Origin: an uncultured delta proteobacterium
GTDB lineage: Bacteria > Myxococcota_A > Polyangia > Fen-1088
Assembly (NCBI GenBank): GCA_963796685.1
Contig: CAWCMR010000011.1
Coordinates: 32,001 to 96,000 of the forward strand
DNA: 64,000 bases
Direction: 5' to 3'
A program made the translations under genes and the position numbers. Of the stretch, positions 42,301-46,009 are shown piece after piece (the first letter of the stretch is position 1; the number at the start of each line of letters is the position of its first letter). A model generated the notes under the pieces. The model was not told the DNA's origin. It searched no databases and worked only from the letters and a program-made list of their open reading frames with translations.

Positions 42301-42673
42301 CGTAAAACTCCGGTTGTACGTTCATATCAGCAAGTGGTGTGCCACTAGCCGCGTGGACGATCTCTGGTCGCCTTCCCAAGAATTCTCGGTCTTGCCGCTG
42401 CGTCAGCACCTCAGAATCCTGAGGCTTCCAGGGGAGCCTCACGAGTATTTGCACTTCACCAAGGTCAGTCGATTCCGTGCCCGTGGCTTGGGAGCCAGAG
42501 CGGGCACGAAATCGACATAGACGCATTTTGGTGCCGCGTGGTCGCTGCTAGAGCACCGAACGGGTTGAAAGTGCCGAGAATTCAAGAAGTTGCTACGCAC
42601 GTGCACGCTCCGATCCCCTCGCCCCGCGCAGCGGGGAGAGGGCTAGGGTGAGCATCTGTGTTCCTAGTCAAGG

Positions 42674-43624
42674 TCAAATCTCCGTGGTTTGCCAGCGCGA
42701 GTTAGAGCGCAACATGGCGTTGAGGATGGTGAGCAGCTTGTGCATACAGGCGACGATGGCGACCTTCTTGAGCTTTCCTGCGGCGACTAGCCGAGCGTGG
42801 AATCTGGCGATGACTGGGTTGAAGCGTATGGCAGCTAGGGTGGCCATGTAGAGGACGTTGCGGACTTCGGTGCGGCCGCCCCAGATGATGCGGCGGCCGC
42901 GCAGGGTGCCGCTGTCCCGGTTGAGTGGAGCAACACCGATGAGGGCTGCGATCTGCTTGCGGTTGAGGGTTCCAGTCTCAGGGGCATGGGACAGGATGGT
43001 GCGAGAGAGGACGGGGCCAGCTCCTGGAACGCTTTGGATGATGTCGTCCTTGGCTTTCCAGACCGAGGAATTGCCGATGGCCGTGTCGATGTCGTTGTCC
43101 ACCTCGTCGAGCTGCTTTTCGAGGTAGGAGATGGTCCTGCGGATGGCCCTCTGCACGCGCTTGGAGGGAGGGTCAGCGCTGAGACGGTTTTTCTCGGCAG
43201 TGATCATGTCGACCACCTGCCTGCGCCTGGCGAGAAGGGCGGCAAGCTCCTGGGTCTCTGCGTCGACAGGCGGGCGGACGGGTGGCCGTATTCGTTCGGC
43301 GAAAAGAGCGATCATGGCGGCGTCCAGGGCATCGGTCTTCGCGAGACAGCCGTTGGCCTTGGCGAAGTCGCGAACGCGTCTGGGGTTGACGACGACAGCG
43401 GGCAGGTTGGCAGCGAGGAGCGCCGCAAGCACGCGTCGTTCGAGTCCACCGGTGGCCTCAAGAACGATGAGGGTGACGTTCAGGGCGGCCAACTCTTTGC
43501 AAAGAGCGCGCACCGTGTTGTCTTGATTGGGGGTGGACCAGGCTCTTTTGGCCGGCAAGACATGGACGTCGAGCGTGGCCTTGGAGACGTCGATACCTAC
43601 GAATGTGTCAGCTGTTGGTGTCAC
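42674..43624 (-). CDS. IS110 recombinase/transposase
   Basis: DEDD motif: GIDVSK, LEATG, KTDALDA; C-terminal RDSG serine loop; GTG start after AAGGAG. Confidence 0.95.
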
Positions 43625-43629
43625 GGGCT

Positions 43630-43848
43630 CCTTTCGCGAAGGACTTCTGCTCTTGGTATGCCCAGCCTTGCGGAGTATGCGGGCTCGAGGCCCTCTCATC
43701 TGTTCGGGCTGCTTGTGAAAGTCGACACGACGACCCTCGCTCACCCACGGTCTTTGTGACCTGAGGGGCATCGGTCTGTCGTGCCGTTGAATCTCGTCGT
43801 GCTCCTTCGCCTTTGGGGGCGAGCGTAGCCCAGCTTTGCTGGGCGAAG
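43630..43848 (-). ncRNA. Bridge RNA (target- and donor-binding loops); 5' part continues at 45924-45970
   Basis: LTG GCCCCTCA and RTG GGGTGAG match the target; LDG ACAGATG and RDG ATAC match the donor. Confidence 0.8.
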
Positions 43849-45923
43849 GTGCGTCCGGCATGGACGCAGAACAAGAGGTGAAGCCATGAAATAGCCAAGT
43901 CCTCTGGGGACCCTGACGGAGGGAACCTCCCACCTACGAGACAAGGGCGCCGGTCTGGAGCACCAGGCCAGACGGGCCGCAAGGCCCGTCTCCCGCGAGG
44001 AGGTGTCTGGTGGAAGTCTATGGTGCAGCGCCGAACCGAACGAAAGTGAAGCGCCGTAAGGCGTGGGTACCGCTGGGCAAGCTGGCCTTCGGCGGCAAAG
44101 CCCAATATTCGTCGGGCGGCCCGCGTAGTGGCGACGGAGTCGGTGCGAAGTTCTGCGTTCTTACCCGGAGAGACCTCTTGGCCTCCGCGGCGAGGAATCG
44201 CAAGCGGAATTCATCGAGAACGAAAGGACGAGATGAAGAAGGGACAAGAGGAGTCGGATGGTCGCGTAATACCGGAAGGCCGGCGAAAGCCGGTTCCAAC
44301 CGCCAGAAGGCGGGGAGGGAAGGCGACCACGGCCAGCAAAGAGGCAAGGCAGCTCGGACTGTTTCCCGAGACAGCCGACAACCCGAAAGGGACCACCGCC
44401 CAAGCGGATCCGGGCCAACCCGTGCCTGCGCGGAGCGAGGTGCCGAAGTCGGGGAACGAGGAAGAGAGGACCTTGCCGCCCATGACGATGGAGGAGGTAG
44501 CGAGCGAAGGAAACCTGAAAAGAGCGTTCGAGCAAGTGAAGGCCAACAAAGGCGCACCTGGACCGGACCGGCAAAGCGTGGGGGAAGTGGCGAAGGGGTT
44601 GGGGACGCTGATACCGGCGCTGTCGCGGTCGCTGCTCGACGGGACATACCGAGTCGGAGACATCCGGCGGGTATGGATACCGAAGAGCGGTGACGGGCGG
44701 CGGGGCCTTGGCATACCGAACGTGGTGGACCGCGTGGTTCAGCAGGCCGTGCACCAAGTGCTCGGTCCGCATTATGAGCCGACGTTTCACCCGTCGAGCC
44801 ACGGTTTCCGACCTGGGCGCAGCTGTCACACGGCCATCGCCGAGGCCAAGCAGTATCTGGAGGAAGGGTACGAATGGGTGGTCGACCTCGACCTGGAAAA
44901 GTTCTTTGACCGGGTCCACTGGCAACGGCTGGTGGCGCGGCTAGAACAGAGGGTTAAGGACCGGCGGCTCATCGAGCTCATCTGGCAGATGCTGAAAGCC
45001 AAGGTGGTGATGCCCGACGGAGTGGTGGTGGCGACGGAAGAAGGAGTGCCACAAGGTGGTCCGCTTTCGCCGTTACTGAGCAATATCGTGCTGGACGAGC
45101 TCGACCGCGAGCTTGCCCAACGCGGTCACCGCTTCGTGCGCTATGCGGACGACTGCAACATCTACGTCGGAAGCGAGCGCTCGGGTCAGCGTGTGATGGC
45201 CAGCGTGGTCAAGTTCATCGAAGGCCGGATGCGGTTGAAGGTGAACTTGGCCAAGAGCGCGGTGGCCCGACCGGAAGAGCGGCACTTTCTGGGATTCCGG
45301 CTGCGGCGCGAGCCGCTGACGGGGGAAGCGGAGGTGCTGCTGTCGGCGCGGAGCAAAAGCCGCATTGACGAGAAGGTCCGAGAGCTGACGCCGCGAAACC
45401 TTGGGCAGTCCCTCAAGGGCTGCATCAAACAGGTCAACGCGTATTTGCTCGGATGGATCGGCTTCTTCTGTATCTGCACGGCCGCGGAAGAGCGGACGCT
45501 GCAGGCACTCGACGCACACATCAGGCGGCGGCTGCGAGCGATAGTGCTACGGCACTGGAAACGCAGACGCTTCATCGCACGACACCTCATCAGCCTGGGG
45601 GTGAGACCGAAAACCGCGTGGCAAGGGGTCTACAAGGGGCATCGCTCCTGGTGGGCGCTGAGCCACACATCGGTAGTTGAACGAGGACTGCGCAACGCAT
45701 ATTTTGCCGAACGCGGGCTTGTCAGCCTGGCCGAGCGGTGGAAGGACCATCACGCCTTGGACTTCATGGACCCGGCCCTGGAGCCAGGATAGCTGCGGGC
45801 AGCAATGCCGGCGCTGGACTACGGGTCGCTCCCGAACGCCAGCGTCCCGAAGAGCCGGATGTGAGGCCCACAAGTCCGGTTCTGTGAGAGCTGGGGGAGG
45901 GTAACCTCCCCTGGCTACTCGAC
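43849..45923 (+). mobile_element. Group IIC intron inserted antisense in the IS110 non-coding end
   Basis: 5' GTGCGTCCGGCATGGACG lies 4 nt after hairpin GCCCAGC-TTT-GCTGGGC; short domain V GAGCCGGATGTGAGGCCCACAAGTCCGGTTC; domain VI ends CTCGAC. Confidence 0.88.
44482..45792 (+). CDS. ltrA: Group II intron reverse transcriptase/maturase, class C type (start could be 44233)
   Basis: NKGAPG.D, LGIP.V.DR, WVVDLDLEKFFD, PQGGPLSPLL, FVRYADDCNIYV. Confidence 0.95.
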   Translation: MTMEEVASEGNLKRAFEQVKANKGAPGPDRQSVGEVAKGLGTLIPALSRSLLDGTYRVGDIRRVWIPKSGDGRRGLGIPNVVDRVVQQAVHQVLGPHYEPTFHPSSHGFRPGRSCHTAIAEAKQYLEEGYEWVVDLDLEKFFDRVHWQRLVARLEQRVKDRRLIELIWQMLKAKVVMPDGVVVATEEGVPQGGPLSPLLSNIVLDELDRELAQRGHRFVRYADDCNIYVGSERSGQRVMASVVKFIEGRMRLKVNLAKSAVARPEERHFLGFRLRREPLTGEAEVLLSARSKSRIDEKVRELTPRNLGQSLKGCIKQVNAYLLGWIGFFCICTAAEERTLQALDAHIRRRLRAIVLRHWKRRRFIARHLISLGVRPKTAWQGVYKGHRSWWALSHTSVVERGLRNAYFAERGLVSLAERWKDHHALDFMDPALEPG

Positions 45924-46009
45924 CGAGGGGGGACCGGGGGACTGCGAGCGAGAGCGAGCCAGTCCCCCGTAAGATACAAGGGGCCAGCGCACTCTCTCGC
46001 ATGGCCGAA

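Follow-up and report, generated by a model that had tools for sequence, protein, structure and literature searches.

An IS110-group insertion sequence that very probably works like IS621, with one copy split by an antisense group II intron

Bridge RNAs were predicted in most IS110 elements by Durrant et al. (PMC11208160), and the element described here, at positions 42651-45980 on the minus strand of the window (the whole stretch of 64,000 nucleotides that was analysed), is an ordinary addition to this known RNA-guided family, one of thousands. With IS621 it shares an enzyme with a DEDD RuvC-like domain and a Ser Tnp domain, a long left end, a right end on the 21-nt scale and a CT core, as well as two modules of stem, guide, hairpin and guide in which target comes before donor. 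For IS621, PMC11208158 describes a right donor guide that is discontinuous, AU..G-CAAG, with handshake positions after it, and PMC11208160 a promoter built across the junction; the guide has a counterpart here, and the promoter a predicted one. The donors are nearly the same, ACAGATG-CT-TGTAT here and ACAGTAT-CT-TGTAT in the IS621 donor oligo given in PMC13396178, which agrees with the IS621-like layout that a first-pass annotation of this DNA had pointed to. The bridge RNA of IS621 is reported to be weakly expressed from integrated loci (PMC13626964). A second likeness is to ISPpu9 and ISPpu10 of Pseudomonas putida, described as multi-copy IS110 elements in repetitive extragenic palindromes, where DNA structure has been proposed to add to the specificity of ISPpu10 (PMC12288879; 10.64898/2026.03.19.712850). 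In our reading the region very probably holds an IS110-group insertion sequence (IS) that works like IS621 and whose guides can be read from its sequence, its window copy being split by an intron.

The element has the layout of the IS110 group, with a long non-coding left end (279 nt), a short right end (21 nt), CT on both sides and no long terminal inverted repeats; with the intron excluded, the unit measures 1,251 bp between two CT cores. Its boundaries are fixed by comparison within the genome, both of copies and of empty paralogous sites. An exact 20-mer search of the genome found seven right ends and 13 left ends, and there are seven full copies whose IS part is 100% identical, the window copy included (1,251/1,251 bp among the six intron-less copies). 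Where the same repeat is empty (25 paralogous sites), the flanks abut with one CT in common, seen as a 2-nt overlap of the flank matches. The junctions proposed by the first-pass annotation are read in the sequence, the left as GGCCC-CT-TGTAT (45985-45974, minus strand) and the right as ACAGATG-CT-CACCC (42659-42646, minus strand), and the ends and the gene between them are arranged as follows:

45981..45985, minus strand: left target half (LT) GGCCC of the occupied repeat unit; its last four bases are GCCC in 6/7 full copies and ACCC in 1/7
45979..45980, minus strand: left CT core, the 2-nt overlap of flank matches at the 25 empty paralogous sites
45924..45978, minus strand: IS left end, first 55 nt
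45978-45974, minus strand: right donor half (RD) TGTAT, within the first 55 nt of the left end
45969-45935, minus strand: leader hairpin 1, with compensatory changes and conserved in relatives L045 and L111
43625..43848, minus strand: IS left end nt 56-279, comprising leader hairpin 2 and then the bridge RNA core
43843-43829, minus strand: leader hairpin 2, beside which the intron homed
42674..43624, minus strand: IS110-family RNA-guided recombinase gene, GTG start, 316 aa, TGA stop at 42676-42674
42653..42659, minus strand: left donor half (LD) ACAGATG, the last IS bases, the same as the left donor guide at 43703-43697
42652-42651 and 42650-42646, minus strand: right CT core and right target half (RT) CACCC; CT-CACCC follows 7/7 right ends

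The recombinase scores 212.7 bits against NF033542 (IS110 family RNA-guided transposase; cutoff 140) and matches Pfam PF01548 and PF02371, with the N-terminal DEDD RuvC-like domain and the C-terminal Tnp domain with catalytic Ser of IS110-group enzymes. Residues D12, E56, D98, D101 and S238-G239 align with the catalytic residues D11, E60, D102, D105 and S241-G242 of IS621; these residues are intact, as had been proposed. The best solved-structure match is the ISCro4 transposase (PDB 9t56; E 2.9e-31 over residues 8-308), a likeness at the protein level alone, and the IS621 protein is a distant match (phmmer E 1.2e-26). A distant search for IS621 DNA, in which E. coli genomes were searched with a relative from a Klebsiella MAG, gave no match.

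The bridge RNA of the window copy is laid out in two loop modules:

43723..43786, minus strand: target-binding loop module, from RNAalifold on 21 relatives, pair counts and guide-to-flank covariation
43786-43773 with 43735-43723, minus strand: outer stem of the target module
43769-43764, minus strand: left target guide GCCCCT
43761-43749, minus strand: inner hairpin of the target module
43746-43740, minus strand: right target guide GGGTGAG
43739, minus strand: presumed handshake C of the target module
43660..43709, minus strand: donor-binding loop module, its layout set against IS621 nt 110-177 as presented in PMC11208158
43709-43706 with 43663-43660, minus strand: outer stem of the donor module
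43703-43697, minus strand: left donor guide ACAGATG
43693-43681, minus strand: inner hairpin of the donor module
43678-43675 and 43670-43667, minus strand: discontinuous right donor guide, AUAC and CAAG
43666, minus strand: presumed handshake G of the donor module

In the first loop GCCCCU is the top strand of LT and core, a match of only 6 contiguous nt (GCCC and CT), and GGGUGAG is complementary to core and RT (CT-CACCC). In the second, ACAGAUG equals LD, the 7 nt that close the IS, and the two bases after it are AG and not the CT of the core; AUAC and CAAG are complementary to GTAT and CTTG of CT-TGTAT (RD and core), with CAAG covering the core. Because the guides of the two loops match the target and donor halves, the address predicted from the sequence is the 11-bp site GCCC-CT-CACCC. 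The first-pass annotation had placed GCCCCTCA at 43769-43762, GGGTGAG at 43746-43740, ACAGATG at 43703-43697 and ATAC at 43678-43675 on the minus strand, and all four strings are found there; ATAC is correct as a donor guide but is only part of it, the CAAG at 43670-43667 having been missed.

Could the matches between left end and flanks be coincidence or captured target DNA, with no guide RNA and the protein alone picking the target? The repeats are GC-rich and CCC-rich, which makes short matches easier to obtain, and the single-sequence fold of the intron-less left end is only marginally better than shuffles (z -1.97) and, through the core that both carry, pairs the right target guide with a portion of the left one. 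Rfam, searched with 42000-46600 to an E of 1, gave no family on the sense strand of the left end. Against coincidence, when the 279-nt left end was shuffled 200,000 times by mononucleotide, 79 shuffles had a target-type guide pair and 394 a donor-type pair but none had both together, which excludes a chance origin of the guides; moreover, one guide is direct and the other reverse complement, around a conserved hairpin. The single-sequence fold was not decisive, and comparative structure was used in its place, with the RNA core alignable in 60 sources including the element's own copy (from 80 fetched loci plus that copy).

The RNAalifold consensus of 21 non-redundant sequences contains 23 pairs, compensatory changes being present in 16, and none of the four guides is paired in it. 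It shows the IS621-type arrangement of two consecutive modules, each of stem, 5' guide, hairpin and 3' guide; the two loops that the first-pass annotation expected from folding the intron-less left end, with guides in loops and not in stems, are present in the comparative consensus; in the single-sequence fold the guides partly pair. Paired cells amount to 97.1% versus 78.6% in shuffles (0/500 reach the observed value) and 34-48% when partners are slid. The right target half matches its guide at 174/185 positions in 37 elements (permuted mean 66.4) and the left target half at 94/196 positions in 28 elements (permuted mean 61.7), neither value being reached in any of 5000 permutations; want of a boundary or flank dropped 14/51 elements from the right test and 23/51 from the left. 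Downstream of the gene, 39/51 elements carry the left donor guide's 7-mer with CT after it, a donor test that is partly circular because the relatives' flank boundaries were themselves set by motifs (CTTGTAT; donor guide and CT). On these alignments, guides follow each element's own flanks while stems keep pairing. Since the loop columns of relatives change with their own flanks and the stems are kept by compensatory changes, recognition by the protein alone is scarcely credible, and a bridge RNA programmed against the host repeat, as first proposed, fits 7/7 copies as well as the way relatives' guides track their flanks. Two features of the window element stand out in this comparison: no other of the 21 aligned sequences has the 3 extra nt inserted in the bulged part of its right donor guide, and the RNA core match begins 115 nt from the start of the left end, compared with about 10-56 nt in most boundary-set relatives and 81-184 nt in a few.

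Mapping of the other copies, which had been suggested as a check, places all seven full copies at the same 11-bp motif, xCCC-CT-CACCC, with CT-CACCC on the right at 7/7 and, on the left, GCCC-CT at 6/7 and ACCC-CT at 1/7. No two of the seven share a flank, and at least three unrelated repeat contexts are represented. The 11-mer GCCC-CT-CACCC occurs 121 times in the genome against about 18 expected from base composition, and the target site sits in one palindrome arm of abundant REP-like repeats. Near-matching targets in the window, also reported earlier, are real but imperfect, each agreeing at 10/11 positions: CCCCTCACCC on the plus strand at 16864, 17300, 17735, 18168 and 46010, and GCCCTCACCC on the plus strand at 21704. 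In repeats of this kind, a site displaced by 9 nt is the address of sister elements whose protein is 61-66% identical in the best tblastn segment. With seven insertions and over 100 empty sites, a single genome supplies its own internal control, and for this reason the element is a clear case for teaching and an ortholog that might be screened.

By analogy with IS621, the insertion sequence would excise as a circle, and the joint between right end (RE) and left end (LE) would form a sigma-70-type promoter, TTGACT-17-TATCTT, from which the bridge RNA and the recombinase gene would be transcribed; a recombinase tetramer would then hold donor and target on the two loops, and strands would be exchanged at CT via a phosphoserine intermediate. 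The two predicted promoter boxes lie at opposite ends of the integrated element:

42666..42671, minus strand: -35 box TTGACT, in the 21-nt right end; TTGAC stands in the same register in 34/39 relatives
45976-45971, minus strand: -10 box TATCTT, in the first 55 nt of the left end

Joining RE to LE gives TTGACT (42671-42666), 17 nt and TATCTT (45976-45971), read directly from the sequence and in agreement with the earlier claim for the circle. A promoter scan of the integrated element returned 0 promoter-like sites. Among contigs matching the element (contigs, not raw reads), neither an RE-LE circle junction nor a polymorphic empty site at the window locus was seen; joints with sides under 30 nt (42652>46023, 45923>45964) were counted as repeat noise, and uncovered stretches carry no meaning in this comparison. 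The RNA-library contigs X15, which spans 43533-43769 with 8 differences, and X16, which has the intron-less LE joint with a side of 33, belong to relatives and are no sign of transcription.

These negative results in the contigs examined would suit an inactive fossil whose identical copies arose by assembly collapse or gene conversion and not by recent transposition, as would the state of the assembly, a draft genome of 26 contigs with 6.5% contamination. Set against this are the seven copies with seven different flanks in three repeat families, reading frames that are all open, and diverged solo fragments beside identical full copies, a coexistence that suggests ongoing turnover. A fossil is thus very improbable, and we favor an element that has been moving in this genome in the manner of IS621.

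The window copy differs from its sisters by an insertion on the opposite strand:

43849..45923, plus strand (antisense to the IS): group II intron, IIC-like, 2,075 nt, from 5' GUGCG to 3' ...CGAC
44128-45792, plus strand: RT/maturase ORF, inside the intron

GTGCG stands at 43849, and the intron has the group II signatures of domain V/VI, D1-D4, 5' GUGYG and an IEP with RT and maturase. Rfam gives 79.7 bits for RF02001 and 46.6 bits for RF00029, and the IEP matches Pfam RVT_1 and GIIM and scores 368 bits with TIGR04416; no endonuclease domain was detected in a Pfam search of the IEP. Exact removal of 43849-45923 restores the intron-less IS, and the joint without the intron, 43848>45924, is present in a DNA contig of run X1. 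The intron is IIC-like, a class assigned from behaviour and size alone: like group IIC introns such as B.h.I1 it has a small ribozyme part, RT and maturase, and insertion just downstream of inverted repeats. IIC introns are described as sitting downstream of terminator motifs or other inverted repeats (PMC1702495), and here an inverted repeat ends 0-10 nt before the intron at 10/10 visible 5' flanks. In contrast to group IIC introns, however, the host hairpins here are without T tails, and two of the 11 intron sites in the genome fall within an IS110 left end. The intron has retrohomed beside the leader hairpin, 55 nt inside the left end and on the opposite strand. The nesting of a IIC intron antisense in a bridge RNA leader is a new point.

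The intron moves the guide loops 2,075 nt further from the -10 box and, being antisense, is unspliceable from the IS transcript. Since it cannot be spliced out and separates promoter from guides, the window copy is probably handicapped, and its bridge RNA and enzyme are probably supplied by the six intact sister copies. The alternative, that the window copy is fully autonomous despite the intron through read-through or an unrecognised promoter, with a 3.3-kb composite moving as a unit, has several points in its favor: both ends, both loops and the recombinase gene are intact, the IS sequence matches the other copies at 100%, and terminator prediction gave no minus-strand site within the intron. 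The weak expression of IS621 bridge RNA from integrated loci (PMC13626964) and the report of IS110 elements of up to about 100 kb (10.64898/2026.08.14.744561) are compatible with it as well. Yet no promoter-like site lies upstream of the loops, the antisense intron cannot leave the IS transcript by splicing, and the only intron-bearing left ends are one full IS copy, that of the window, and one mutated solo fragment, so there is no sign of the composite having moved. Autonomy is therefore rather unlikely, and dependence on the sister copies is preferred. The first-pass reading of the window copy as a natural bridge recombinase is supported in substance, although it overlooked the antisense orientation of the intron; the intact system is better represented by the six intron-less copies elsewhere in the genome.

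Four independent solo left ends in this genome stop exactly at the left-target-guide DNA and continue into the right half of the target repeat, each regenerating a perfect GCCC-CT-CACCC site. The guide-coding DNA is itself LT and core (GCCC-CT), followed here by CA, and so matches 8/11 target positions. It is quite possible, at somewhat under an even chance, that the left-target-guide DNA is a built-in self-target used by the recombinase as a crossover site. If so, the element would shed left-end modules of about 140 bp, either when partial excision pairs this site with the right junction or when a left-end minicircle re-inserts; the internal endpoints that recur among reported IS110 partial circles would gain a sequence rationale, and, together with the IIC intron in the leader hairpin, there would be two ways in which the RNA-coding end is a liability. 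Solo left ends were not seen among the strong matches in relatives, which are full length in 8/8 cases in genome G012 and 8/8 in G030; in G240, 7/9 are full length and two, at 79% identity, end at nt 132 of 171.

The likeness to known systems has definite limits. Compared with IS621, the left target guide is shorter (6 nt here, 9 in IS621) and the right target guide longer (7 nt here, 4 in IS621), the target is GCCC-CT-CACCC, and two to three additional hairpins lengthen the leader. The different target specificity noted in the first pass thus stands, but candidacy as a programmable-recombination tool is true of thousands of such elements, with no superiority shown. ISPpu9 and ISPpu10 occupy other repeats in other hosts and are likened here by description alone. 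A further connection is to the Xanthomonadaceae sRNA sX15 (Rfam RF02234), which scores 107-149 bits on the left ends of Xanthomonas/Stenotrophomonas relatives (L116, L113, L115, L121) and 29.4 bits (E 0.047) at window positions 43645-43796 on the plus strand, below its gathering threshold of 55 bits. The sX15 model covers the same DNA as the bridge RNA core but lies on the other strand from the recombinase gene, and is thus a model of the antisense of such bridge RNAs. In sum, the locus leaves existing knowledge unchanged, in that most IS110 elements already had predicted bridge RNAs, and adds to them one natural bridge recombinase for which the target, the four guides, the presumed handshake positions and the putative promoter can be read from sequence.

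The window (G000:C11:32001-96000 in the source genome) holds an insertion sequence (IS) that is a typical bridge system of the IS110 group, apparently active, and its address, which lies in a REP-like repeat, can be read from the sequence. A bridge RNA programmed against a host repeat family had been proposed in the first-pass annotation, and both the observation and its interpretation are sound. The recombinase matches the Pfam families DEDD_Tnp_IS110 and Transposase_20 and scores 212.7 bits against the NCBIfam equivalog 'IS110 family RNA-guided transposase' (cutoff 140); among solved structures, ISCro4 (E 2.9e-31) and IS621 (E 1.2e-26) come closest to it. 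Residues D12, E56, D98, D101 and S238-G239 align with IS621 D11, E60, D102, D105, S241 and G242; D11, E60, D102, D105 and S241 are named as catalytic in PMC11208158. The DEDD and Ser residues are intact, as claimed. Whole-genome BLAST and exact 20-mers of both ends located 7 right ends and 13 left ends in the genome. The IS limits are fixed by six intron-free copies: once 43849-45923 is taken out, the window copy agrees with each of them at every one of 1,251 bp.

Features of the IS and its bridge RNA (window coordinates)
42646-45985, minus strand: IS with its flanking target halves
45978 (TGTAT) to 42653 (ACAGATG), minus strand: IS limits, CT on both sides, from identical copies
43624 (GTG) to 42674 (TGA), minus strand: recombinase gene, 316 aa
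43849-45923, plus strand: group II intron, 2,075 nt (RF02001 79.7 bits, RF00029 46.6 bits)
43786-43773 / 43735-43723, minus strand: target module outer stem
43769-43764, minus strand: target module 5' guide GCCCCT
43761-43749, minus strand: target module inner hairpin
43746-43740, minus strand: target module 3' guide GGGTGAG
43709-43706 / 43663-43660, minus strand: donor module outer stem
43703-43697, minus strand: donor module 5' guide ACAGATG
43693-43681, minus strand: donor module inner hairpin
43678-43675 and 43670-43667, minus strand: donor module 3' guide AUAC + CAAG

Because the single-sequence fold of the left end was not decisive (z -1.97), the structure of the RNA was derived by comparison with relatives, for which a scan of one genome per species supplied 80 loci at 38-99% protein identity (best tblastn segment). 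The region upstream of the recombinase gene aligns well among them, and a profile search detected the RNA core in 60 sources, the source genome's own copy included. For 21 non-redundant full-length sequences, the RNAalifold consensus has 23 pairs in four helices, and compensatory changes occur at 16 of these pairs; 97.1% of cells pair, against 78.6% in shuffles (0/500 as high) and 34-48% when partners are slid by 1-3 columns. The four guide strings of the first-pass annotation are all present at the positions given there, and in this consensus all four guide segments are unpaired rather than in stems. In each module, the base that directly follows the 3' guide (C 43739 in the target module, G 43666 in the donor module) could pair with position 7 of the other DNA partner, which by analogy would fit the expectation of the handshake model. 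A 3-nt insertion ('tac' in the alignment, 43678-43674) in the bulge of the right donor guide is absent from the other 20 aligned relatives and yields the contiguous AUAC originally noted.

The guides also track the flanks of the relatives. The left boundary was taken as the last CTTGTAT upstream of the core and the right as the element's own left-donor-guide 7-mer plus CT downstream of the gene; a left flank could be used in 28 of the 51 non-redundant guide sets and a right flank in 37, the others being left out where the motif was missing or a contig end was reached. Over five positions of the right target, 174/185 bases match the loop's reverse complement (37 elements; permuted mean 66.4, 0/5000 as high), and over seven positions of the left target 94/196 match (28 elements; permuted mean 61.7, 0/5000 as high); several rows are out of register by one base, which lowers the latter count. 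In 39/51 sets the donor 7-mer plus CT is present, with TTGAC at a constant register ahead of it in 34/39. The closest relatives are loci L044, L045 and L111, with 61-66% protein identity (best tblastn segment). As read from their left flanks and left target guides, L044 and L045 are addressed to CCTAACC-CT and L111 to CCTAGCC-CT, each 9 nt downstream of a CCCCTCACCC motif within a repeat of the same type. On the right, L044 and L045 are flanked by CT-CTCCC; no right boundary was found for L111, where CTCCC comes from the right target guide alone. Relative to the window element, these three represent a natural register shift between sister elements. Further relatives in complete genomes also fit (L021, L023, L027, L032, L016).

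Within the source genome, all seven full copies sit at a common 11-bp motif, with CT-CACCC directly after each and GCCC-CT (six copies) or ACCC-CT (one) before it. Further out, the flanks come from three or more distinct families of repeat, and the motif is therefore the sole common feature. The ~133-bp repeat that houses the window copy has 25 other copies in which the two flanks of the window copy meet directly, sharing a single CT; these are empty sites. The 7.3-Mb genome contains the string GCCCCTCACCC 121 times, where base composition predicts ~18, and most occurrences lie within target repeats. No perfect empty target site lies within the window. Near-matching targets do recur where the first-pass annotation placed them, although each is imperfect (10/11): at 16864, 17300, 17735, 18168, 21704 and 46010, all on the plus strand, the last being the opposite arm of the palindrome that houses the IS. 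The first four fall one per unit, as TCCC-CT-CACCC, in a tandem repeat at 16513-18254 (period 435 bp, four copies, 98% identity), and none is occupied. Outside the window, tandem arrays of target-bearing repeats at C11:98645-101789 and C25:1540176-1543330 (periods ~180 and 186 bp) each hold an IS copy, the C11 array with 10 empty sites round one insertion. A tRNA gene (L007:282-353, minus strand, 68.1 bits) lies ~1 kb from the intron-free copy on contig C15.

Six left ends lack a matching right end, and four of these, outside the window at C8:213062, C25:1109421, C25:234217 and C25:1545507, share a break point. Each extends from TGTAT to ...GATGCCCCTCA, where the left target guide is encoded, and beyond this point reads as the right half of a target repeat (CCCGCCTCGC... 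or CCCTAGCCC...), with a 4-nt deletion at C25:234217 and mutation at C25:1545507. The shared break point suggests that the guide-coding DNA, which equals the left target half, the core and two right-target bases, is used as a pseudo-target. In the simplest reading it would recombine with the right junction, so that a left-end module of ~140 bp remains and the perfect target is restored; alternatively, the solo ends may come from a left-end minicircle that re-inserts. Two 2026 preprints (10.64898/2026.08.14.744561, 10.64898/2026.08.31.748434) give a picture of partial excision and half-matches with which recombination at a pseudo-target agrees; their accessible parts do not name guide-coding DNA as an endpoint. 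No such solo left ends were seen in the genomes of three relatives, and so the effect may depend on this element's extended 8-of-11 match.

Joining of the ends gives TTGACT, 17 nt and TATCTT, the junction that circularisation would build. A promoter scan found no sigma-70-like site in the integrated element, and by analogy with IS621 (PMC11208160) the junction would function as the promoter. In the window copy, the intron stands between the guide loops and the segment with the -10 box and first hairpin (45978-45924) and, lying on the opposite strand, cannot be spliced from the IS transcript. The junction promoter of this copy thus probably yields no normal bridge RNA, and the copy presumably relies on the six intact ones. 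A DNA contig of sequencing run X1 carries the intron-free joint but is not independent support, as the run may be the source sample. In one soil study, two metatranscriptome libraries (X15, X16) have contigs, 95-97% alike, that cover 43533-43769 (guide loops and gene start) and 45924-45976 (intron-free left end), which records presence in an RNA library only and is not evidence of transcription.

The intron ORF has reverse transcriptase and maturase domains (TIGR04416, 368 bits), and the genome holds 11 intron copies with identical ends. An inverted repeat ends 0-10 nt ahead of the insertion point in 10/10 copies with a visible 5' flank, matching the habit of group IIC introns of inserting just after inverted repeats (PMC1702495). 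The insertion into the IS is 5 nt away from a leader hairpin (43843-43829), which L045 and L111 keep with compensatory changes; the left end at C25:1545507 has the intron at the identical position, which makes this hairpin a repeated homing site. At C8:379444-383672 two intron copies lie in tandem with the same hairpin ahead of each, in what looks like a duplicated unit of ~2,154 bp.

The sole Rfam signal over the RNA core is sX15 (RF02234), sub-threshold at 29.4 bits and on the opposite strand (43645-43796, plus). This model reaches 107-149 bits on relatives from Xanthomonas and Stenotrophomonas, there too on the strand opposite the recombinase gene (L116:64-222, L113:2309-2466, L115:2309-2466 and L121:1-133, all minus). 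The sX15 type locus, on the plus strand of a Xanthomonas plasmid (116378-116536), has a complementary asX7, with RNAs reported from both strands (PMC3300014), and it overlaps a 251-bp left-end-only fragment on the minus strand. RF02234 is therefore a model of the strand antisense to IS110 bridge RNAs; literature searched for both names together yielded no link between sX15 and IS110.

In sum, the element adds a member to the IS110-group bridge systems, a type of system already known. IS621 has the same two-module architecture, at nt 34-98 and 110-177, and in both elements the right donor guide is discontinuous (PMC11208158, PMC11208160).
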